NCBI GenBank assembly: GCA_007376385.1
Contig: VMGC01000003.1
Location: 1 to 64,000, forward strand
Reading direction: 5' to 3'
DNA length: 64,000 nucleotides
Source of the DNA: Parcubacteria group bacterium Gr01-1014_8
GTDB lineage: Bacteria; Patescibacteriota; Minisyncoccia; Phycocordibacterales; UBA2100
Shown: positions 4,355-42,899 of the stretch, in pieces
Numbering within the stretch: position 1 is the first letter of the stretch
How the letters are laid out: each line of letters starts with the position of its first letter
Notes under the pieces: model-generated
Database searches by the model: none
Seen by the model: only the letters and a program-made list of their open reading frames with translations
Told to the model about the DNA's origin: nothing
Program-made: the position numbers and the translations under genes

Positions 4355-5285
4355 GGTACCCATTGCCTGCCCTTGAACCAATTTTGGCTTTCAGCGATGG
4401 GAATTGAACAGCGCAAGAATGAAAGGTTTCAACCCCCAAGGCAAGCCCTGGACTCTGGAAAACGAGCACCGCTCGTTTCCCAAATTCCGCGGCCTGTCTG
4501 CGTGCATCGCACAGGCCTAGTCCTTCAGAAACAAGCGACTGAAACGCAGTAGTATAGGCGTCTTTGTAACTGCGCCGAACGTCAGTGAGGGATGTATTTT
4601 TCGCGATCGCTTTTAAAATTGCTCCCCGCACTTGTCGCAAGGAACCCTCGAATCTTGATTGTTTTGAGTGATGTGTACTGCGTCGCGAGGGATTCGGATA
4701 CATGTGCTTGAGATGCGTCCCATAATCCATGAGCGCCGAATACCATATGCGCGGTTCCCGTCTACCAATTGCTGCTTCAACGATTGGAAACAGCTCTTTG
4801 TCCTCGACCTTCTTTTTTCTAGGAAAAAAATGGTGGATGAACACTGCGCGTATATTTGTTTCGATAAAAGTTTCAGGCATATTGAATGCGAACGCCCGAA
4901 CAGCTTTCGCCGTGTAATCCCCTATTCCCGGCAACGCACGCAGCTCTTCATAACTCTCGGGGATCTTTCCGGCGTGGTTCTGCACGATTGCACGCGCCGC
5001 GTCGTGCAAATACTTCGCTCGCCGATTATAGCCAAGTCCGCTCCACACGTTCAAGACATCTACGAGCGACGCTTGTGCCAGTTTTTTGACAGTCGGAAAT
5101 TTCTCCAGAAATTCTTTGTATTTTCCAATGACCCTATGAACCTGCGTCTGCTGAAGCATTATTTCGGAGATGAGTATCTTGTATGGATCTTCCGTTTTTC
5201 TCCAGGGCAGATCTTTCCGCCCATGCGCTCGAAAAAACTCCAGAACAGTTCGTCTAAACGAAGTGTATCTGGCGTCTGTTGTCAC
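4344..5285 (-). CDS. HhH-GPD DNA glycosylase, MutY/EndoIII-like, no obvious Fe-S cysteine cluster
   Basis: MLQQTQVHRVIGKYKEFLEKFPTV...LPGIGDYTA helix-hairpin-helix motif. The last 60 or so codons run through an intergenic-type repeat, so the 3' end is uncertain. Confidence 0.65.
   Translation of the reverse strand: MTTDARYTSFRRTVLEFFRAHGRKDLPWRKTEDPYKILISEIMLQQTQVHRVIGKYKEFLEKFPTVKKLAQASLVDVLNVWSGLGYNRRAKYLHDAARAIVQNHAGKIPESYEELRALPGIGDYTAKAVRAFAFNMPETFIETNIRAVFIHHFFPRKKKVEDKELFPIVEAAIGRREPRIWYSALMDYGTHLKHMYPNPSRRSTHHSKQSRFEGSLRQVRGAILKAIAKNTSLTDVRRSYKDAYTTAFQSLVSEGLGLCDARRQAAEFGKRAVLVFQSPGLALGVETFHSCAVQFPSLKAKIGSRAGNGYLKC
4411..4441. repeat. partial copy of the intergenic repeat family (shares gaaaggtttcaaccccc with the copy at 28939)
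   Basis: 17 nt exact match to 28939-28955. The adjacent 11-mer ggcaagccctg is the reverse complement of cagggcttgcc in the other copy. An imperfect hairpin lies nearby at 4440-4470. Confidence 0.4.
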
Positions 5286-5569
5286 GATGTTGGATTGTCT
5301 GAAACTGTGTGCACTTTTGGGTTTTCCTGTGGAATTATCAGAATAGCCAATAAATAAGCGATAACTCCCGGAAATATTCCAGTCACAAGCACAAAAAATA
5401 TGAATATCACTCGTAAGAGTGCCGAGTCAACACCAAAATACTCCCCGAAACCGCCGAGGACTCCTGCAAAGGTCATGTCCGTCTTACTCCGCAATAACTT
5501 TTTCATGACGCGATTATACCCCATGAGATAACGAACGAACAATTGCCGTGACAACTCGGTGGAACTCAA
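5282..5569 (-). CDS. PspC-domain membrane protein
   Basis: 95 aa. MTFAGVLGGFGEYFGVDSALLRVIFIFFVL resembles the PspC N-terminal domain, followed by a TM helix. Confidence 0.6.
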   Translation of the reverse strand: MSSTELSRQLFVRYLMGYNRVMKKLLRSKTDMTFAGVLGGFGEYFGVDSALLRVIFIFFVLVTGIFPGVIAYLLAILIIPQENPKVHTVSDNPTS

Positions 5570-5621
5570 GAAACAAAAGCTTGCAGCGAGAGCCTAGGAT
5601 ATGTATCTCACGGGTTATGCA

Positions 5622-6311
5622 CTAAGGCGTATATACGACATCCTTTCGCTCAACGACCACCTTCCACTTCATGCGTTTGGCCGTTTTATAGAGCTTCATA
5701 TTAGGGTTGAAACAGATGGGCTGTGCGACCATTTCTAGGAATGAAATATCCGATTCCGTATCGCCAACACCGATCGACCTCGTCAGGGTCAGGCCTTCAT
5801 TTTCTACCGCTCGACGTACGATATTTGCTTTGTTGTATATAAGATGCTCATCAACAACGCGCCCAGTAAACAGCTCCTGGGGGCCTATTTCATACACCAG
5901 CCCATATGCCTTATCAAAACCAAGACGCGGACAGAATTTATCCAACACGGTTTTGGGTGAATGCGACACAGCAAGCAAGAAATATCCTTTTTTCTTCAAT
6001 TCTGGCAAGAGGTCGCGCGTATAACGATATGTTTGCTTCCACCTCGCCTGCACCATCCTTTCAGCAGCATCTGCGAGCGCAGAATAGTGGAGACCCTTTA
6101 AATGTTTGCGAAATGCCTGGACCAGCGCATCAACGTACGCGCCATAGTCCCCTTCTCGGTCGAGCCATTTCTGCCTCTCTCGTTCGTAGACGGCTTCAGC
6201 CTCCTTTGGAAATGAGCCGTCTTTAATTAGTTGGTCTACAAGCTGGATGAGTAAACTTGAGCGAAAAATTGTGCCGTCGACGTCAAAAATCGCGACCCTA
6301 CGTTTCTCCAT
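5622..6311 (-). CDS. HAD-superfamily hydrolase
   Basis: N-terminal AIFDVDGTI motif I (DxDGT) and downstream HAD motifs. Confidence 0.7.
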   Translation of the reverse strand: MEKRRVAIFDVDGTIFRSSLLIQLVDQLIKDGSFPKEAEAVYERERQKWLDREGDYGAYVDALVQAFRKHLKGLHYSALADAAERMVQARWKQTYRYTRDLLPELKKKGYFLLAVSHSPKTVLDKFCPRLGFDKAYGLVYEIGPQELFTGRVVDEHLIYNKANIVRRAVENEGLTLTRSIGVGDTESDISFLEMVAQPICFNPNMKLYKTAKRMKWKVVVERKDVVYTP

Positions 6312-6335
6312 GTGCTCATCCTATCATCACCACTA

Positions 6336-6445
6336 CAAATAAAGGGTATTCATACCGCGGGGTATTCGACCCTATGTTGGCTCCTCGGTTCGGAAATGAA
6401 AGTTAATACTTTCTCGCTTCGCTCGCAACGCTCGCCAATAAAGAT
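6336..6445 (-). repeat. intergenic repeat family copy E (minus orientation), about 85 percent identical to copy A
   Basis: The reverse complement reads tttattggcgagcgttgcgagcgaagcga...tttcatttccgaaccgaggagccaacatagggtcgaatacc, matching 24289-24370. Confidence 0.6.
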
Positions 6446-6561
6446 CAGGTGGGGGCCAGAGCTTTTGAGTCCGCGAGCGAGTGAACGCTGCTTTCCGCAA
6501 GATTAGCCCCCCGCTTCCGCAACGATAATACTCTCGTACCTTATAACATCAAGCTCCGCCG

Positions 6562-7758
6562 TTACTGTTTCTTTCCTCCACCAACTTTTTTCAAAATATC
6601 TGACGTAAAACTGAATGTCATCTTTTTCTTGCCCTCGAACCTCTCCTCTCCTAATCTCATGAGCTCGAGTACGAGTTCCATGCTTGAAAGACCTGTTTTT
6701 TTCCAGTTGTGATGATACAGGCTCCCTGGCAGAGTATTCACTTCATTCACGTATACTTTTTTCGAGTCTGCGTGAACAAGAAAGTCCACACGCGCGATAC
6801 CTGCGAGATCAAGTGCCCTATATACCCGAACCCCTAGGTCTTTGATTTCCGCCGTAAGTTCGTTGCTTATCTTTGCAGGAATTTCACTGTATTCAGCATT
6901 TACTCCTCCCCCGCCGCCTTTTTTCCCCCCGGAAAGATATTTGTCGCTAAAGTCGAAAAATTCAGTCTTGTTCAATGGTCTTTCGCAGTGCGCGGTTCGA
7001 ATTTCGTCATTTCCCATGATGGGCAGTGTGATTTCGATGAGCGGCTCGACGCTTTCTTCAACGAGTATCTTATTGTCATAGTGCAGAGCAACTTCAATCG
7101 CATTTTCAAGTTCCGATCCACTTTTAACTTTTGCCATACCTATCGAGGAGCCGAGATGAACCGGCTTAACAAAAAGCGGCCATTTTAAGTTCTTGATGGA
7201 TGTTAAGAGCGCGTCTTTATTCTTCGCCCATTCAGGTTTTGTAAACCACACGTACGGAACGACCGGCATGCCTTCAGCGGCAATTACCTGTTTCGTAAGA
7301 ACTTTGTCCATCGCAACTGCCGAGCCGAAAATATCACAACCGACAAACGGTACATTCGCCATGCGGAGAAGTCCCATCAAGGAGCCGTCTTCTCCATATG
7401 TGCCGTGCATTGAGGGAAATGCAACATCTATCTTCACCGTCTTTTTAAGAAACCCCGGCCACACAAGTGAAAATCCATTTTCAAATGAAAGCTGCACTTG
7501 TTTCTGTTTTTTAAGATGAGCTTCGTAGTCTGGGTCCTTGAAGAACGTGAGGTTATTCATCGACTTTTCCGAATACCATGCGCCTTCTTTCGTAATGTAC
7601 ACTGGCCACACGTCAAATTGCCCGCTTGCAAGCAACGATTCGATGATGGGAATATGTGCAGTTATCGTCGAAACATCATGTTCCGCGCTGCGTCCTCCAA
7701 AAATAACCGCTATAGACTTCACTTCTTGATTATATGTCACACGTACTGGTCCGGCCAA
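6562..7758 (-). CDS. ddl: D-alanine--D-alanine ligase
   Basis: ATP-grasp fold, N-terminal VIFGGRSAEHDVS motif. Lies downstream of murF as in dcw clusters. Carries a Gly-rich insertion. Confidence 0.9.
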   Translation of the reverse strand: MAGPVRVTYNQEVKSIAVIFGGRSAEHDVSTITAHIPIIESLLASGQFDVWPVYITKEGAWYSEKSMNNLTFFKDPDYEAHLKKQKQVQLSFENGFSLVWPGFLKKTVKIDVAFPSMHGTYGEDGSLMGLLRMANVPFVGCDIFGSAVAMDKVLTKQVIAAEGMPVVPYVWFTKPEWAKNKDALLTSIKNLKWPLFVKPVHLGSSIGMAKVKSGSELENAIEVALHYDNKILVEESVEPLIEITLPIMGNDEIRTAHCERPLNKTEFFDFSDKYLSGGKKGGGGGVNAEYSEIPAKISNELTAEIKDLGVRVYRALDLAGIARVDFLVHADSKKVYVNEVNTLPGSLYHHNWKKTGLSSMELVLELMRLGEERFEGKKKMTFSFTSDILKKVGGGKKQ

Positions 7759-13405: not shown

Positions 13406-14458
13406 ATGTTCCATTTACTTGAACGATACACAGTAGAGAGCGTGACGTGCGGCCATCCTGATAAGGTCTGCGACCAGATATCAGACGCCATTCTCGATGC
13501 GATGCTTGAGCAGGATCCATATAGCCGGTCAGGGGTTGAAACGTTCGGAAGCCACGGAACTCTCATGATAGGCGGAGAAGTAAAGACGAGGGCGAAAGTA
13601 GATTTTGAGAAGATAGCGAGAAAAGTCTACAAAGATATAGGATATACGGCAAAACTTGAAGTGCTTGTTCGTATCGCACAGCAGTCACCCGACATCGCCA
13701 TGGGAGTAGACACGGGAGGAGCGGGAGACCAAGGCATCATGTATGGATACGCGACAAACGAGACAAAGGAGATGCTCCCTCTCGGTGTTGTGCTCGTGCA
13801 TGCGCTTGCACGCCGCTTGGAAAAACTTCGACGCGATAAAACGCTCAAGTGGCTCCGTCCCGATGGAAAAACACAGGTTACGATCGCGAACGGCAAGGTT
13901 ATAACCGCACTTTGCTCGACGCAGCACGACAATAAAGTGTCGCAAGAGGAAATCAGAAAACAGCTCATCAAGCACCTATTCACGCCTGTTCTCGGTTCAG
14001 TAAAAAATATTGAGATCCTAGTCAATCCAACGGGACGGTTCGTCCAAGGCGGGTTTGAAGCTGACGCAGGACTGACAGGTCGCAAAATTCAGGTGGACAC
14101 ATATGGCGGTCTGATGCCGCACGGAGGCGGGTGTTTCTCCGGAAAAGAGCCGATGAAAGTGGATCGTTCTGCCGCGTACATGTGCCGTTTCGTCGCAAAA
14201 AATCTCGTTGCAAATAAATATGCGAAGAAGGCCTTAGTGTCTGTCGCATATGCTATCGGGCGAGCAGAGCCTGTGATGATCGAAGCATTTGACGAGAAGG
14301 GAAAAAATCTAACTTCTATCGTAACGAAGAACTTTGATTTCCGCCCGCAAGCCATTATTGAGAGACTCGACTTACGCCGCCCCATCTATCAGGAAACAGC
14401 AGCATATGGACACTTCGGCGTAGCGGGCCGCTCATGGGAAAAAATAATTAAAATTTGA
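13406..14458 (+). CDS. metK: S-adenosylmethionine synthetase
   Basis: GHPDKVCDQISDAILDA N-terminal signature, GAGDQGIMYGYA motif. Confidence 0.9.
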   Translation: MFHLLERYTVESVTCGHPDKVCDQISDAILDAMLEQDPYSRSGVETFGSHGTLMIGGEVKTRAKVDFEKIARKVYKDIGYTAKLEVLVRIAQQSPDIAMGVDTGGAGDQGIMYGYATNETKEMLPLGVVLVHALARRLEKLRRDKTLKWLRPDGKTQVTIANGKVITALCSTQHDNKVSQEEIRKQLIKHLFTPVLGSVKNIEILVNPTGRFVQGGFEADAGLTGRKIQVDTYGGLMPHGGGCFSGKEPMKVDRSAAYMCRFVAKNLVANKYAKKALVSVAYAIGRAEPVMIEAFDEKGKNLTSIVTKNFDFRPQAIIERLDLRRPIYQETAAYGHFGVAGRSWEKIIKI

Positions 14459-24480: not shown

Positions 24481-24960
24481 TTACTTTGCGAGAAGACGTT
24501 TGTTTCTGAAAGGAGCGGTAAGAAAACGAATGAGACGACTTTTCAAATAGAAATCGATGGAGTGCGGTACAAGGTCAATATGTGCAATGAAGACAACGAG
24601 CCCGCGAATTTGCTCTCTAGCATCAACCGTATTCTTCCCAACGTACCCATATTCTTGCCCAATTCGTACAACCGCAAGAAGCATGGACGCGAACAACATG
24701 ATCGGGAGAAATGGCCCCGCAGAGTAAACTCCAACAAATCCCAAGAACCACAAAACAAACAGTATCGACGCACTAGCGGAAAGTGACGGCATAGACCTAT
24801 TCAGACGCTTAGCTTCTACTTCACTTACCTCACGTAGGGTTGCTTCCCCCTTGGCCGCTCGTTTCGAGACGCCATACCAAGTCTTTTGAACAGGTATCCA
24901 TATACCCTCTGAATATCGACGTGTTTTAGGCTTATTTGGACGTTTTGACGTTGCTTTCAT
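24481..24960 (-). CDS. hypothetical membrane protein
   Basis: Two central TM helices and a basic N-terminus, no domain recognised. Confidence 0.4.
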   Translation of the reverse strand: MKATSKRPNKPKTRRYSEGIWIPVQKTWYGVSKRAAKGEATLREVSEVEAKRLNRSMPSLSASASILFVLWFLGFVGVYSAGPFLPIMLFASMLLAVVRIGQEYGYVGKNTVDAREQIRGLVVFIAHIDLVPHSIDFYLKSRLIRFLTAPFRNKRLLAK

Positions 24961-25171: not shown

Positions 25172-27340
25172 TTGTGCGTCAGCATAGTCTCAACGGCAAT
25201 GGTTTTTTTCGACCCAAGCGGAGTCAGAAAGATAGTATTTGGGATAACGGTTTTTGTCATTCTCGTACTTCTTAGTGCAACACTCTTTGGCAGCTCACAA
25301 TATTTGAAGAATGCACGCATCTTTGCAGAAACGGCATATGCTCCGGTCAATTGGAGCGAACCCCAATTTGAAAAAACACTGGCGCTTACGTTCGACGACG
25401 GCCCTAAGCCCATATACACAGAGGAAATTGTGTCAGTTTTGAAAGAAAATGATGTTCCGGCAACCTTTTTTCTTGTTGGGGAGCAGATGATACGCCATCC
25501 CACGATAACTCGCTCGATCGTCTCGAACGGCTTTGATGTCGGCAATCACTCTCTGACACACTCGCGAAACATCCATTCGAGCTCTGAACGCATACATCGC
25601 GAAATAGTTGCGACCGATCGTATCTTGAGCGCTATTACCGGCCACTCAAGCATATTCTACCGGCCGCCTTATTTGTTGGATCAGGAATTTGGAAGTATTG
25701 ATGGGATGAGCATTGACAGCGACGTCATTAGAACGATCGAGGAGGTAGGGCCAATTGTGGTCGGTGCGGATGCAGGCGGCGAAGATTGGGAAACAGCAAT
25801 ACGGGCAGATGCGGACATTATTTATGAGCAGGTTGCCGCAGATGCGAGGGACGGACATCATGTCATCTTGTTGCACGATGCGGCGGGAGCGGGAGCAACT
25901 GCCGATGCGCTGAGAGAACTCATCCCTGCATTGAAAGCTGAAGGATACAGATTCGTCCCGCTCTCCTTCTATTTCGGTCTCACCCGGGAACAGGCCATGC
26001 CGGAAGTTGGAATTGGCGTCATACTATCAGAAGCAGTTCTCACCCTTCTCGTTTTTACGGAAGTCAGCGGCGGTGCACTGCTATACATATTAGTTGTTTC
26101 AATGGTTGTTATTGCAGTCGCTCGCATCTGGTTCATCATTTTGGTCCGCCGTATCATTGTTCCGCTTGTTCGAACGCCTAGGTTTCGCGGTATTCTTCCT
26201 TCTGTCTCGGTCATAATTCCAGCACATAACGAGTCCGCGAACATTGAGGCGACCATTCATTCCGTCATGTCGGGAAGTGTAACGCCGGAGGAAGTAATCG
26301 TTGTCGATGATGCCTCGAGCGATAATACGGCGAAACTCGTCAGAGAACTTCAAGTGAAATACGATCCGCGTTTGAGATTGCTGCAGAAGGAGCGCGGCGG
26401 CTCGAAAGCCGCCGCGCTGAATGCTGGTCTTCCCGAAGCGGCCGGAGATGTTCTTGTCTGTATCGACGCTGATACAACTGTGAGCCGGCACGCTCTTAGG
26501 AGACTCCTGTATCATTTTCATGATACAAAAGTCGGCGCGGTCGCAGGCAAAGTGTACCCTGCGTCACTGCGTTCTTTCTTTGAGAAACTGCAATATCTTG
26601 AATACGTGCAAGCGCAAAATTTGGATAAAGAAGTATTTTCGGTCGTGAACGCAGTCGGCATCGTACCCGGTGCCATCGGAGCTTGGAGAAAAACCGCAGT
26701 CGTGAACGCAGGCGGCTACTCCCTCGACACTGTCGTTGAAGATCAAGACCTTTCACTCGCGCTTCTTCTCAGAGGCTGGAATATCGTGTATGAACCGGAA
26801 GCCCTCGGATACACGGAAACTCCTACCAGCGCCCAGACGTTCTTCAAACAGCGATTCCGCTGGGTTCATGGAACGATGCAATGTTTTCGCAAATACGAGG
26901 CGTGGTTTGCTTCCCCGTTCGCTCCCCGGATGGGTTTTATCGTCCTGCCGAATCTACTCTTGTTCAACCTCATCATTCCGCTCGCCGCACCTCTTGTTGA
27001 TATTGCGTTCTTCGCGAGCGTCTTTGGTATATTCAACGTCCCGCTTGTAGCGACAATATTCATTTTCTTTATTCTTTTTGATCTTCTCTATGCCTACGAA
27101 GGCCTGCGGCTTGAAGAAAAACCGACGTATTCACTCATTCCACTTATTCCTATTCAGCGCTGGGTATACCGATACATTGTCGCCGCGGCAATGTTCAAAA
27201 GCGTAGTCGCTGCACTCGCCGGTACATTAGTGGTGTGGGCAACTCCCTCACGCCGCGGCACAGCGTCGCGTGAATGGGCACTTGTGCAAGCGAAAGCAGA
27301 ACGACTTCAAACTCAAATATCAAAGATCTCTACCGACTAA
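25172..27340 (+). CDS. fused polysaccharide deacetylase (NodB/CE4) - family 2 glycosyltransferase (processive synthase-like) membrane protein
   Basis: Signal anchor, TFDDGP and NodB His motifs, TM segments, then GT2 motifs DDASSDNT, DADT and QRFRW. Confidence 0.8.
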   Translation: MCVSIVSTAMVFFDPSGVRKIVFGITVFVILVLLSATLFGSSQYLKNARIFAETAYAPVNWSEPQFEKTLALTFDDGPKPIYTEEIVSVLKENDVPATFFLVGEQMIRHPTITRSIVSNGFDVGNHSLTHSRNIHSSSERIHREIVATDRILSAITGHSSIFYRPPYLLDQEFGSIDGMSIDSDVIRTIEEVGPIVVGADAGGEDWETAIRADADIIYEQVAADARDGHHVILLHDAAGAGATADALRELIPALKAEGYRFVPLSFYFGLTREQAMPEVGIGVILSEAVLTLLVFTEVSGGALLYILVVSMVVIAVARIWFIILVRRIIVPLVRTPRFRGILPSVSVIIPAHNESANIEATIHSVMSGSVTPEEVIVVDDASSDNTAKLVRELQVKYDPRLRLLQKERGGSKAAALNAGLPEAAGDVLVCIDADTTVSRHALRRLLYHFHDTKVGAVAGKVYPASLRSFFEKLQYLEYVQAQNLDKEVFSVVNAVGIVPGAIGAWRKTAVVNAGGYSLDTVVEDQDLSLALLLRGWNIVYEPEALGYTETPTSAQTFFKQRFRWVHGTMQCFRKYEAWFASPFAPRMGFIVLPNLLLFNLIIPLAAPLVDIAFFASVFGIFNVPLVATIFIFFILFDLLYAYEGLRLEEKPTYSLIPLIPIQRWVYRYIVAAAMFKSVVAALAGTLVVWATPSRRGTASREWALVQAKAERLQTQISKISTD

Positions 27341-27391: not shown

Positions 27392-28084
27392 TCAACGTTC
27401 GGTCACGATATCCAGCCAAGGACCCTGCGATACGGCCTCGTTCGCAACATGCCGCCATTCCACTTCTGATACATCACCAGCGTGTAAACAATCGCGCATT
27501 GCAGGAGAGAGGTCGATACCTGCCCATTCGCCCTGTTCATTCGCTGGCCACTCAGCATCTCCAAACACGTAGTCCACATCATCTGTCTCATGTGGTCCTA
27601 CATCCTCCCACTGACCGAAGCATGATTTTCCTCTCAGCCGTACCTCGATCCAGCGGTCTTTCAAAAGCGTCGTGCGTGCGCTACTCTCGTTCCACGGGAT
27701 CATGTCTGAATTGTTTTTTCTTTTATCCCTTCGCATGTCATTGTATGGCAGAGCAACATAGAAGGGATTTTCTTTGGGTGTGAAGGCGCATGGCTGATAC
27801 CCACAACGTTCTTCTGGGTCATCAACGCCCCCGAAATGCTCCTCCCAATCCTCGTCCCATGCGCTGGCGCTGTTGTGTATGAACGCGTTGTCCTCGGTCG
27901 CTCCCTCGCCCACCCAAAAAACCGTTGCTTTGGCCGTTTTCCACCCCTCTCGATCCATCCCATTAGACACCGCGCTTGCGGCTGAAAAGTCGAAAAGCGT
28001 GGCCGAATACTGCCAAAAAATCAGAAAAACGAGCGCACAAAGAGCGCCTGCAATCGCTCCAATAATGAGTCGGCGGTCCAACAT
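27392..28084 (-). CDS. membrane-anchored protein with a possible RlpA/expansin-like double-psi beta-barrel domain
   Basis: IEVRLRGKSCFGQWEDVGP...GIDLSPAMRDCL resembles a DPBB fold. Start is probably the internal Met before the TM helix; the ORF extends to 28252. Confidence 0.4.
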   Translation of the reverse strand: MLDRRLIIGAIAGALCALVFLIFWQYSATLFDFSAASAVSNGMDREGWKTAKATVFWVGEGATEDNAFIHNSASAWDEDWEEHFGGVDDPEERCGYQPCAFTPKENPFYVALPYNDMRRDKRKNNSDMIPWNESSARTTLLKDRWIEVRLRGKSCFGQWEDVGPHETDDVDYVFGDAEWPANEQGEWAGIDLSPAMRDCLHAGDVSEVEWRHVANEAVSQGPWLDIVTER

Positions 28085-28223
28085 GGCCACGCATTGTACC
28101 AAAAGAGTACCGTTTGGACGTATTGCGCCTTTTTTTGTGACAAGAACCTTACAATGTCGGTTAGAAAACATTAAAAAGCCTGCCGCAAGTACAAGTTCTA
28201 GTTTCATTTGAGACAATAAAGCA

Positions 28224-28940
28224 GTGAAAGCTATTTTCTTTATTCTTGTCATTTCGTTCTTCAGCGCAGTTCAGTGGGTATCAAATATCGCGCTTCCTCC
28301 TCTTCCTCCCTCAACCGCACAGCAGACTGCTTCTGTTTCCATCTCCACGACAGATACAACCGAAACTTCGCCAACATCAAAAAAGTCAGAGCAAAATACT
28401 GCCGCATCTTCGCTGGTGCCAAAACAGTTGCCCGCGGCTTCGACACAACAACCTCATCCGTCCAACAAATTTCCCGAGCAGACAACCCCTCCGACACCGA
28501 TCACATTATCTGTAGAAACTGAAAAAGATTTCTTAACAAAAGTTGAGATAGAAATATTCTTGCTTACTAATAAAGAGCGCACAGCACTGGGACTCCCCTC
28601 GCTTGTCACAGATACTGAGCTTGCGGCAATTGCTGAAGCACACAGCAAGGACATGCTCATGAACGACTACTTCTCGCATGAAGATAAGAGCGGATGCAGT
28701 TCATCATGCCGGGCAAATAACAGAGGATACTCTTGGTCAACAATTGGAGAGAATATTTATATGATGTCCGGTTACGAACTTTCCGCAACAGAAGCTGCCG
28801 CAATGATCGTACAGGGCTGGATGAACAGCCCCGGACATCGTGCAAATATCCTGCGTCCTGCCTTTACTCACCTTGGCGTCGGTGTTGTTGCGGAAGGGAA
28901 AAACGTCTATTCAACGGCGCTTTTCGCGAAACCGAGATGA
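28224..28940 (+). CDS. secreted CAP/SCP/PR-1-like domain protein with Ser/Thr/Pro-rich linker
   Basis: Signal peptide, low-complexity T/S/P/Q linker, C-terminal CAP domain (EAHSKDM...GHRANIL...HLGVGV). Confidence 0.7.
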   Translation: MKAIFFILVISFFSAVQWVSNIALPPLPPSTAQQTASVSISTTDTTETSPTSKKSEQNTAASSLVPKQLPAASTQQPHPSNKFPEQTTPPTPITLSVETEKDFLTKVEIEIFLLTNKERTALGLPSLVTDTELAAIAEAHSKDMLMNDYFSHEDKSGCSSSCRANNRGYSWSTIGENIYMMSGYELSATEAAAMIVQGWMNSPGHRANILRPAFTHLGVGVVAEGKNVYSTALFAKPR

Positions 28941-29054: not shown

Positions 29055-30371
29055 CTACTGAAGCTTCTGGTTTGCGATATTCATTTCTTCCAGTTCGATC
29101 TGCACTTCTGCCGGGACCTCCTGGGATGTGTCCTTTTTTAACAATCGGAACGATCCGCCTACGATCGCAACAATTGTCGCGATACCGCCGATTGCAAGAC
29201 CCCAGCGCGCACCAACATATTCGCCGATCCAACCCACAAGCGGCCCTCCAAGCAACGTGCTGCCGGTGATCGCCATTGTCCAGAGCGCCATTACTCGTCC
29301 GCGCATCTCAGGCACGCTTTCCAGTTGAACCATCGTGTTTGCAGAAGAAGACATGTTGATCGAGAACAAGCCGACCAAGATCATGCCACCTATCGCAGAA
29401 ACTAACGTTGGAGCGAGAGCAGTGCCAATGATGGAGATACCGAATAAAAGCCCGAAAATTACAAAGAGATGGGGCGCGACAGTATGTCTGCTTGCAGCAT
29501 ATAGGCCGCCAATTACTGACCCGATGCCAAAAGCCGACATAAGAGCCGCATACGCGCTCACATCGGAAAGAAACGTTTGCTCTGCAAATATCGGGAGACT
29601 TATCTGAAACTCGTACGCGAATGTACCAATAACTGCGATCATTATCAAGATGCCCCGAATACGAGGCATCGATTGTACGTAGCGAAACCCCGCCCGCAAT
29701 TGCCCCGATCTTGTGCCTATGGGTGGCGAGCGATGTAATTCTTTTTCTTTCATCAAAAAGAGCATCCATATGACAGCCACGTAGGTGAATGCATTGAATA
29801 GAAAACAAAATGCGATGCCAGCGGTCGCGATAAGAATTCCTCCGATTGACGGCCCTACTGCTCGCGCAAGATTATTGACCGTTGAATTAAGACTCACAGC
29901 ATTATTCAGGTGTTTCGCATCTACCATTTCAGATACAAACGTCTGACGTGTGGGATTATCAAAGATCCGGATGAGACCCCATACGAAAGCAAACACGAAA
30001 AGCATCCACGTACGCATAGTGCCCGCATACACAAGAACACTCATGCAAAGGGCAAGGATGCCGAGCGCCGCTTGGGTAAGCAGCAATATCTTCCGCTTGT
30101 CGAAGCGATCCGCCACAACACCTCCCCACACACCAAACACTAAGAGCGGGAAAAACTGCGTCGCAACGATCAAACCGAGCTTGCTACCGGACCCAGTAAC
30201 TTGGAGCGCAAGCCATCCAAGAGCGATCAATTGCATCCAGGTACCTGAAAGAGATACCGCCTGACCGATAAAATATAGACGATAATTACGAATAGCGAGC
30301 GACGCAAAAATCCGCCCGAAAAATACCCCGATTTGTCGCATCGTGCCATGATAGCGCACATTCAATCTCAC
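29055..30371 (-). CDS. MFS transporter
   Basis: 12 TM helices, MFS-type loop motif. Confidence 0.8.
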   Translation of the reverse strand: MRLNVRYHGTMRQIGVFFGRIFASLAIRNYRLYFIGQAVSLSGTWMQLIALGWLALQVTGSGSKLGLIVATQFFPLLVFGVWGGVVADRFDKRKILLLTQAALGILALCMSVLVYAGTMRTWMLFVFAFVWGLIRIFDNPTRQTFVSEMVDAKHLNNAVSLNSTVNNLARAVGPSIGGILIATAGIAFCFLFNAFTYVAVIWMLFLMKEKELHRSPPIGTRSGQLRAGFRYVQSMPRIRGILIMIAVIGTFAYEFQISLPIFAEQTFLSDVSAYAALMSAFGIGSVIGGLYAASRHTVAPHLFVIFGLLFGISIIGTALAPTLVSAIGGMILVGLFSINMSSSANTMVQLESVPEMRGRVMALWTMAITGSTLLGGPLVGWIGEYVGARWGLAIGGIATIVAIVGGSFRLLKKDTSQEVPAEVQIELEEMNIANQKLQ

Positions 30372-30403
30372 AGTTCTCTTTCGGAGACTTCCTTAATCTT
30401 TGT

Positions 30404-30474
30404 TGCCAGACTTGGACTCGAACCAAGATACTCGCCTCCAGAGGGCGATGTCCTACCGTTAGACGATCTGGCAA
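30404..30474 (-). tRNA. tRNA-Gln(CUG)
   Basis: Hand-folded cloverleaf: acceptor TGCCAGA/TCTGGCA, anticodon loop CTCTGGA, T-arm CTTGG-TTCGAGT-CCAAG. Confidence 0.8.
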
Positions 30475-30522: not shown

Positions 30523-31482
30523 TTATTCAATCACACATACCCTCTTGTCTCTGGACAATTTAACCGGTATTTCCGCAATAGACTGGACGCCATCTTTGTC
30601 AAACGTGACACGAAGCAAAAGTCCTGTGCTGACCTCATCGTTCCAATACTGGTCAAACACAAAGTTTCCGAGGGAGTAGTAGATATCTTTGCCGTTATAT
30701 AGTTCGTGCTCCTGAACTATGTGAGGATGGGAGCCAATAACAATTTCCGCCCCCGCGTCTACGAACGAATGTGCGAGCTGCCGCATTGGTTTTGTTGGAG
30801 GCACATATTCCTCGCCCCAATGCGCATACACAACAACCACTCGTTTGCTTTCTGCTTCCGTTCGCACCTGCTCAACAACAGGATTAAGCTCGCCTGCCCC
30901 GTTAGAAGCCGAAAGCTTTCTAACTGGGGTCCAATCGCTCCAATTCACGAATGAGAATGGAATTCCGTTTATTTCTAAGCGCGCAACACGATCTGACTCG
31001 GTGGAGTCCGGATCACCGAAATACTGAATTCCCGCACCATCAAGCCATTTTTTGGTTTGCAACAATCCCTCGCGACTGAAATTCATTATGTGATTATTCC
31101 CAATATTTACGAGAGACATATTATGCCGCTTCAAAAGAGTCGCCGTACTCGTCGAAAATGTAAACGTAACATTTTCAGGCGTGTCTACTTTGCTTCCAAG
31201 ACTCAAAGACGAATGGGTCGTGATCGGACCTTCAAGATTCGCGACAACAACATCCGAGCTCAATAGTGTCTCCCGTATGCAGGAAAACACATGGTCATCC
31301 CCGTTCTCTCGCATTGTTTCGCGAACAGAGCGGTCGAACATCATGTCGCCTCCAAAAAGAATTTGGGCATCTTTTTTTGCTGGCAGAAGTGAAAAAAAGA
31401 CCGCGTGCGGCGCTTCTGCCGGAAGCGGCAACAGACTGCCGAACATGAGGATCGAGAGAAAAAACAGAACCATAACGCACAT
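30523..31482 (-). CDS. CapA-family metallophosphoesterase
   Basis: Signal peptide, metallophosphatase motifs GGDMM, NLEGP, GNNH, HWG, GSHPH. Confidence 0.6.
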   Translation of the reverse strand: MCVMVLFFLSILMFGSLLPLPAEAPHAVFFSLLPAKKDAQILFGGDMMFDRSVRETMRENGDDHVFSCIRETLLSSDVVVANLEGPITTHSSLSLGSKVDTPENVTFTFSTSTATLLKRHNMSLVNIGNNHIMNFSREGLLQTKKWLDGAGIQYFGDPDSTESDRVARLEINGIPFSFVNWSDWTPVRKLSASNGAGELNPVVEQVRTEAESKRVVVVYAHWGEEYVPPTKPMRQLAHSFVDAGAEIVIGSHPHIVQEHELYNGKDIYYSLGNFVFDQYWNDEVSTGLLLRVTFDKDGVQSIAEIPVKLSRDKRVCVIE

Positions 31483-42059: not shown

Positions 42060-42067
42060 TCTCGCTG

Positions 42068-42141
42068 CGCGAGTGAAGGGACTTGAACCCTCGACCTTTC
42101 CCGTGACAGGGGAACGCTCTAACCAGCTGAGCTACACCCGC
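42068..42141 (-). tRNA. tRNA-Asp(GUC)
   Basis: Acceptor GCGGGTG/CACTCGC, anticodon loop CTGTCAC, T-arm GAGGG-TTCAAGT-CCCTT. Confidence 0.85.
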
Positions 42142-42493: not shown

Positions 42494-42512
42494 CTTAGTA
42501 TTCTACTACAGG

Positions 42513-42586
42513 TGCTGGGGGACGGGATCGAACCGTCGACCTAGCGCTTATGAAACGCTCGCTCTAACCGACTGAGCTACCCCAGC
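42513..42586 (-). tRNA. tRNA-Met/Ile2(CAU), elongator type
   Basis: Acceptor GCTGGGG/CCCCAGC, D-loop AGTCGGTTA, anticodon loop TTCATAA, T-arm GACGG-TTCGATC-CCGTC. Confidence 0.85.
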
Positions 42587-42817: not shown

Positions 42818-42827
42818 GCTGTACTTG

Positions 42828-42899
42828 TTGCGGGGGCGGGACTTGCACCCGCGACCTTCAGGTTATGAGCCTGACGAGCTACTACTGCTCCACCCCGCT
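42828..42899 (-). tRNA. initiator-like tRNA-Met(CAU) with non-canonical D and T loops
   Basis: AGCGGGGUGGAGC...CUCAUAA...CCCCGCAA resembles E. coli tRNA-fMet. A1:A72 are unpaired. D-loop AGTAGTA lacks G18G19 and T-loop is TGCAAGT instead of TTCRANY. Confidence 0.6.

Follow-up and report, generated by a model that had tools for sequence, protein, structure and literature searches.

Can one gene of a genome-reduced bacterium both build an extracellular polysaccharide and modify it? The question is raised by a gene at positions 25199 to 27340 (+) of a 64,000-nucleotide stretch of Parcubacteria group bacterium Gr01-1014_8 (GenBank assembly GCA_007376385.1, contig VMGC01000003.1, positions 1 to 64,000), hereafter called the window. 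The gene joins a polysaccharide deacetylase of carbohydrate esterase family 4 (CE4) to a glycosyltransferase of family 2 (GT2). A first-pass annotation of the sequence had described it as a single polypeptide that couples the synthesis and N-deacetylation of an exopolysaccharide (EPS). The gene is a further member of the known MatB-type bifunctional proteins and not a new type. We favor, as the more probable reading, that it encodes a MatB-type synthase-deacetylase for a partly de-N-acetylated polymer of N-acetylglucosamine (GlcNAc), with a beta-1,6 linkage as the likeliest form.

One intact gene with two conserved catalytic domains

Positions 25172 to 27340 (+) hold one open reading frame (ORF) of 722 codons, which opens with TTG and is closed by a single stop at its end. 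A frameshift or stop that would divide it into two genes was looked for, and none was present inside the ORF. The next in-frame ATG (25199) gives a protein of 713 amino acids (aa). This ATG, rather than the TTG at 25172, is probably the start, because the aligned homologs conserve the initial methionine and the MVFxD..G.R after it and because the 100% identical NCBI entry (TSC86115.1, annotated as a deacetylase/GT2 protein) is also 713 aa long. Motif and helix residues are numbered below from this ATG unless the 722-aa ORF is named. Both flanking genes are on the opposite strand (24481 to 24960 and 27392 to 28252), and the fusion gene is therefore likely to be monocistronic and transcribed alone. 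A scan for promoters and terminators around it returned nothing beyond the level of shuffled sequence.

The domain order of MatB-type proteins was recovered by Pfam searches. Polysacc_deac_1 (PF01522; E=1.1e-27, 96.8 bits against a gathering cutoff of 23.1) matched aa 67 to 168, and PF13641 (E=3e-32) matched aa 343 to 567, both in the numbering of the 722-aa ORF. Two more GT2 models, PF00535 (E=3.8e-30) and PF13632 (E=2e-23), also matched the C-terminal two-thirds of the protein.

The CE4 (NodB homology) domain spans aa 58 to 265 (25370 to 25993, +). All five motifs of the family are present in canonical order: TFDDG (MT1, 25388 to 25402; TFDDGP at aa 64 to 69, 25388 to 25405), HSxxH as HSLTH (MT2, aa 117 to 121, 25547 to 25561), RPPY (MT3, 25661 to 25672), DW (MT4, within 25781 to 25792), and LLHD (MT5, 25868 to 25879). 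Conservation was assessed in an alignment of 39 homologs with 33 to 64% identity. Residues D66/D67, H117/H121, R155/P157, D196/W197, and H226 were invariant, and the Asp/His-His metal site expected from the TFDDGP and His-His motifs noted at the outset is intact. Sequence matches to CE4 enzymes in the PDB reached E=1.5e-28.

The GT2 part, with its catalytic core at aa 334 to 545 (26198 to 26833, +) and the QRFRW helix after it, holds the three motifs reported by the first-pass annotation, together with an ED motif. DDASSDNT lies at aa 370 to 377 (26306 to 26329, with DDASSD at 26306 to 26323), DADT at aa 423 to 426 (26465 to 26476, with DAD at 26465 to 26473), ED within VEDQD (26735 to 26749), and QRFRW at aa 551 to 555 (26849 to 26863). 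These correspond to the synthase motifs DDxSxD, DxD, ED, and QRxRW and align with those of Escherichia coli PgaC and BcsA; ED and QRFRW align with TED and QRxRW of E. coli BcsA. A loss of GT2 catalytic residues was also looked for, and D371/D375, D423/D425, E514/D515, and Q551-R552-x-R554-W555 were invariant in all 39 homologs. The QRFRW sequence sits on a helix (26831 to 26905, +) that corresponds to the QxxRW interface helix of processive synthases.

Predicted structure and membrane topology

An AlphaFold2 model built with the homolog alignment had a predicted local distance difference test (pLDDT) score of 90.2 and a predicted template modeling (pTM) score of 0.81. From the N terminus, it consists of a helix at aa 9 to 38, the CE4 barrel, a continuous 53-residue helix at aa 272 to 324, a GT-A domain, the QRFRW helix (aa 545 to 569), and three long hydrophobic helices between aa 576 and 674. 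The hydropathy profile agrees with this layout. The N-terminal transmembrane (TM) helix (TM1; 25223 to 25312, +) has a hydropathy maximum of 2.79, and the long helix (26012 to 26170, +) reaches 2.8. The three C-terminal membrane helices (aa 576 to 608, 614 to 636, and 644 to 674; 26924 to 27220, +) are placed by the model, hydropathy, the alignment to NCBIfam model TIGR03937, and Foldseek, and they may form part of a translocation channel.

The long helix follows a net acidic stretch and leads into a strongly basic one (RR…R…R.R), a positive-inside pattern from which the CE4 domain is predicted to be extracellular and the GT2 domain cytoplasmic. The hydrophobic C-terminal two-thirds of the helix at aa 272 to 324 are predicted to cross the membrane and so to link the two domains. 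The extracytoplasmic placement of the NodB domain suggested earlier thus agrees with its predicted position between TM1 and the long helix, and the predicted arrangement is that of MatB-type proteins. In E. coli PgaC, a very short loop lies between the two N-terminal hydrophobic segments; the CE4 domain would therefore take the place of this loop, the first external one in a PgaC-like synthase.

Foldseek searches of the PDB matched the GT2 and membrane part of the model to Chlorella virus hyaluronan synthase (CvHAS), BcsA, and chitin synthases (Chs1). Together with the invariant motifs, this predicted fold bears out the earlier assignment of the GT2 part to the processive synthases. The N-terminal part matched Bc1960, PdaC, and other CE4 enzymes with template modeling scores of 0.8 to 0.9 relative to the target. 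No solved chain with both CE4 and GT2 domains was among the Foldseek PDB matches.

Relationship to MatB and other deacetylase-synthase systems

The best NCBIfam match of the protein was PgaC_IcaA (TIGR03937; 181 bits, model positions 6 to 406 of 407, extending to aa 694 of the 722-aa ORF), a score far below the equivalog cutoff of 422.3, so that identity as a synthase of poly-beta-1,6-GlcNAc (PNAG) is not established by it. NodC (TIGR04242) scored 79.4 bits, far short of its cutoff of 550, and CelA scored 58 bits. The CE4 part was nearest the PdaB, PgdA, and NodB models, and the PgaB and IcaB models were absent from the 25 best NCBIfam families listed. Pairwise comparisons gave the same picture. 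The GT2 core shares 35% identity over 233 aa (142 bits) with E. coli PgaC and 27% (79 bits) with Sinorhizobium meliloti NodC, and the CE4 domain shares 31% (80 bits) with S. meliloti NodB; the match to E. coli PgaB was limited to 28 bits over 60 aa, short of a PgaB-type assignment. Judged by sequence, the protein is a PgaC-like synthase and a canonical NodB/PgdA-like deacetylase in one polypeptide.

The same combination has been described for Streptomyces MatB (SCO2962/SLI_3306), in which the CE4 domain is extracellular, the GT2 domain is intracellular, and a TM helix lies between them (PMC4391728, PMC5972031). MatAB produces PNAG, which is required for aggregation and adhesion (PMC5972031). 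The window protein contains a NodB-like CE4 domain at the N terminus, a TM helix, and a PgaC-like GT2 domain at the C terminus in the same order, the genes are of similar size (matB, approximately 2.19 kb; the fusion gene, 2.14 kb), and in both proteins CE4 is nearest PgdA/NodB and GT2 is nearest PgaC. A Streptomyces viridifaciens protein named [quoted passage not shown] (UKZ03153.1) was colinear with it, at 35% identity over 642 aa. The genetic settings differ. Whereas matA is translationally coupled to matB, the fusion gene has an opposite-strand neighbor upstream and no MatA-like gene there, and it lacks the adjacent IcaC-like acyltransferase and IclR regulator of the MatB locus. The host of MatB is an actinomycete, whereas the present gene comes from a metagenome-assembled genome of Parcubacteria.

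Synthesis inside the cell and partial de-N-acetylation outside would also be shared with PgaC/PgaB of E. coli and IcaA/IcaB of Staphylococcus, in which synthase and deacetylase are separate proteins rather than one polypeptide. The likeness to PgaC extends to the D, DxD, ED, and QRxRW motifs and to the two N-terminal and three C-terminal hydrophobic segments. In contrast, the CE4 domain of the fusion is not PgaB-like, and the GH153 domain of PgaB is missing. With NodC/NodB of rhizobia the protein shares the pairing of a GT2 with a CE4 enzyme, which in the fusion, too, would act on GlcNAc chains. In rhizobia, NodC and NodB are encoded by separate adjacent genes, and NodB works in the cytoplasm on short oligomers.

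A widespread architecture

The first-pass annotation implied that the fusion was unusual. That expectation did not hold, and the fusion itself is of little novelty: the CE4-GT2 architecture is already named in NCBI as a standard product, is widespread across phyla, and has an experimentally studied member in MatB (PMC4391728, PMC5972031). In a search of 5.8 billion proteins, the 120 best matches all carried both domains, and several bore the bifunctional product name. An exhaustive search of representatives clustered at 50% identity gave 1,496 representatives at E ≤ 1e-30. The best 150 of these (E ≤ 2e-102) all spanned both domains, nearly all in one stretch covering aa ~58 to 690. Short forms like the present one (≤780 aa, no GH18 domain) made up 40 of the 150, and 95 carried an extra N-terminal domain of the chitinase family GH18. 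On plasmids, tblastn found colinear copies in Sphingomonas, Novosphingobium, Bacillus mycoides, Streptomyces, Prevotella, Sulfitobacter, and Kocuria. A peptide-pattern scan of the genome contigs made with the single protein gave only four weak single-domain matches, its patterns being too specific. In the literature searched, nothing relevant was found on CE4-GT2 fusions specifically in the candidate phyla radiation (CPR)/Patescibacteria.

Among the matches listed, the closest named homologs (approximately 50) were all patescibacterial (Minisyncoccia, Kaiserbacteria, and Kerfeldbacteria). Horizontal acquisition was considered; along with this affiliation, the GC content across the gene (0.49 to 0.51) matches that of the window.

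The GH18-CE4-GT2 proteins of Bacillota and Acidobacteriota (Geobacillus icigianus, Bacillus mycoides plasmids, and Pyrinomonadaceae) have a core colinear with aa 58 to 690 (34 to 39% identity) and differ from the fusion protein in their N-terminal GH18 region of approximately 450 to 600 aa. No characterized member was found in the literature searched. Such relatives are approximately 1,100 to 1,250 aa long, for example, P0109 of Geobacillus icigianus (locus L010, 6001 to 9342) and a protein encoded on a Bacillus mycoides plasmid (locus L012, 3594 to 6944). The GH18 catalytic region of P0109 reads NIDFE and retains D-x-E. In variants of approximately 780 to 800 aa (among them P0052 and P0081, the latter at 5001 to 7352 of locus L017), a PG_binding_1 domain is inserted between CE4 and GT2.

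Proposed mechanism and alternative readings

In the mechanism that we favor, the cytoplasmic PgaC-like GT2 domain would polymerize UDP-GlcNAc processively, and the membrane helices of the same protein would form the channel through which the growing chain is translocated. The canonical CE4 domain (NodB/PgdA type), which would sit outside the cytoplasm in the loop that joins TM1 to TM2, would remove some of the N-acetyl groups from the emerging chain and so make the poly-GlcNAc partly cationic. By analogy with MatB, the product would most likely be beta-1,6-linked deacetylated PNAG (dPNAG) that is retained at the surface of the cell, where it could aid adhesion. The coupling of synthesis and N-deacetylation that the first-pass annotation proposed agrees with the published reading of MatB (PMC5972031); for the fusion itself we infer it. 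A survey of EPS operons likewise encountered fusions of glycosyltransferase and deacetylase in PNAG-like loci without pgaA and pgaD (PMC7112194). On this basis, a genome-reduced Parcubacteria lineage is predicted to have retained, in a single gene, the means to make a partly deacetylated and probably adhesive GlcNAc polymer. In organisms that are believed to be epibionts, this makes the fusion a sensible candidate for a role in attaching cells to hosts or to surfaces.

Several observations weigh against this assignment. The PgaC_IcaA score is below its cutoff; the CE4 domain is closer to NodB and PgdA, which have beta-1,4-linked substrates, than to PgaB (80 bits for NodB, 28 for PgaB); and MatB was compared through its published description, with colinearity measured against S. 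viridifaciens UKZ03153.1 and not against SCO2962. Fused GH18 domains are frequent among the closest representatives, and two of eight patescibacterial loci have separate GH18 genes near the fusion; a beta-1,4 product would account for these associations at least as well. Neither PgaD nor PgaA of E. coli had a tblastn match in the window, weak evidence given that PgaD is short and poorly conserved. The protein in the MatA position of the Streptomyces locus had none in the window or the patescibacterial loci, a weak test with a low-complexity query. Because no equivalents of PgaD, PgaA, or MatA were found, the enzyme may work alone or with unrecognized partners. The genes flanking it have Pfam domains that are unrelated or have none, and queries with GH18, DUF8173, CBM-CE4, and E. 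coli PgaB sequences found nothing in the window besides the fusion itself.

As to linkage, similarity to PgaC and the MatB precedent favor beta-1,6, and the NodB/PgdA-like CE4 domain, a Chitin_synth_2 match, and the GH18 association favor beta-1,4. The best-surviving alternative is accordingly a chitin-like chain from which deacetylation would yield a chitosan-like polymer or oligomer, that is, the logic of NodC/NodB in one protein. The nearest CE4 relatives (NodB, PgdA, and PdaB types) act on beta-1,4 GlcNAc, the Pfam Chitin_synth_2 match is marginal but just over its gathering score (29.8 against 27), and the authors of the MatB studies were likewise unable to choose between 1,4 and 1,6 from sequence alone. 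We nevertheless consider a beta-1,4 product rather unlikely: the GT2 part scores approximately twice as high for PgaC/IcaA as for NodC (181 against 79 with hidden Markov models, 142 against 79 bits pairwise), no GH18 gene was found in the 64-kb window, and the sole characterized protein of this architecture makes beta-1,6 PNAG (PMC5972031).

It is improbable that the two domains are uncoupled, with GT2 making a polymer or glycolipid and the tethered CE4 domain deacetylating peptidoglycan GlcNAc, as in PgdA-like lysozyme protection. The best characterized CE4 relatives (Bc1960, PgdA, and PdaC) are indeed deacetylases of peptidoglycan GlcNAc or N-acetylmuramic acid (MurNAc), and some homologs contain PG_binding_1. 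However, the CE4-TM-GT2 core is one colinear unit in 150 of the 150 best representatives, from many phyla, which argues for coupling, and MatB has been interpreted as IcaA and IcaB in one protein. Tethering beside the channel exit would also favor the nascent chain as the substrate.

That the GT2 part is nonprocessive and adds just one sugar to an acceptor such as a lipid, or that it uses a sugar other than GlcNAc, appears very unlikely. The top PDB sequence match of the GT2 core is an archaeal nonprocessive mannosyltransferase, PcManGT (E=2.4e-15), and no NCBIfam equivalog cutoff is reached, but PcManGT lacks QRxRW at the aligned position, where QRFRW is invariant in the fusion family. Moreover, ED aligns with TED of BcsA, the PgaC_IcaA model aligns over its full length, including the C-terminal membrane helices, and the whole-model fold matches are to hyaluronan, cellulose (BcsA), and chitin synthases.

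Finally, nothing was found in favor of a pseudogene or of an artifact in which faulty assembly or sequencing merged two neighboring genes. This reading is effectively refuted by the uninterrupted frame, the invariant catalytic residues, and the occurrence of the same colinear protein as single ORFs in independent assemblies from many samples and phyla, including loci L005 to L012 and L015 to L017, as the intact single polypeptide first described would require.

Conserved neighbors of the fusion gene in Patescibacteria

The only mildly new element of the locus is the gene convergent with the fusion gene (27392 to 28084, -; ORF to 28252), a testable lead for an accessory factor that is conserved beside the fusion in Patescibacteria. 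It encodes a membrane-anchored double-psi beta-barrel (DPBB) protein of an unannotated family, the conserved part of which starts at M57, and had no Pfam or NCBIfam match. The family has approximately 3,200 members, all "hypothetical." The two genes are convergent in six of eight patescibacterial loci. The DPBB protein is 51 to 64% identical to its tail-to-tail counterparts in L005, L009, L015, L016, and L017, and the fusion proteins of these loci are 41 to 65% identical to that of the window. In L006/L007 and L008 this place is not taken by a DPBB gene; the gene that follows the fusion in L006 bears no relation to the window DPBB protein. The pairing is therefore not universal. Among the 120 best DPBB homologs, 22 share the size of their longest contig with a fusion homolog, and several of these contigs are 4.6 to 12 kb long.

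Given this conserved adjacency, it is plausible that the DPBB protein is an accessory factor of the fusion enzyme, because double-psi beta-barrel domains bind or cut beta-linked glycans. The convergent orientation, in which the genes are not cotranscribed, weighs against such a role. Speculatively, the two genes might form a minimal surface-polysaccharide module in which the DPBB protein replaces the glycan-cutting or glycan-handling part of other systems (GH18, the GH153 domain of PgaB, or BcsZ) and a cationic GlcNAc polymer glues episymbionts to host cells without PgaD, IcaD, or MatA; we regard this as doubtful.

Immediately upstream of the DPBB gene and on the same strand, three loci have a second deacetylase with CBM_4_9 and CE4 domains (L009, 9285 to 10748, -; L016, 8029 to 9546, -; L017, 8317 to 9984, -). 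Of the NCBIfam models, that of the holdfast deacetylase HfsH matches it best (112 bits, below the cutoff). This gene is absent from the window.

The divergent gene upstream of the fusion (24481 to 24960, -) encodes a small membrane protein with a weak match to the DUF5670/lmo0937 family, present in one copy in the 64-kb window. Similar genes recur on the opposite strand upstream of the fusion in L005 (5289 to 5807), L006/L007 (2745 to 2939 in L006), L009 (5237 to 5389), and L016 (4035 to 4415). The association is weak, and it could reflect either conserved synteny or a small membrane partner.

The stand-alone GH18 genes mentioned above lie 1 to 4.5 kb downstream of the fusion in L006/L007 (9236 to 10447, -) and L009 (12580 to 13791, -), and each adjoins a DUF8173 gene. 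In L008, a second synthase-like GT2 gene without a CE4 domain (13752 to 14151, +; 421 aa) is located 5.6 kb downstream of the fusion.

Other features of the window

A secreted protein with a CAP/SCP domain and a long Ser/Thr/Pro-rich linker is encoded at 28224 to 28940 (+); the DPBB ORF, in its longest reading, overlaps the start of this gene. A PGA_cap (CapA-like) protein (30523 to 31482, -; E=3e-53) adjoins a tRNA-Gln gene (30402 to 30473) and an MFS_3 transporter gene (29055 to 30371). Farther along, two tRNA-Met (CAT) genes (42511 to 42586 and 42827 to 42899, -) lie approximately 240 nucleotides apart, with a tRNA-Asp gene nearby (42067 to 42141).

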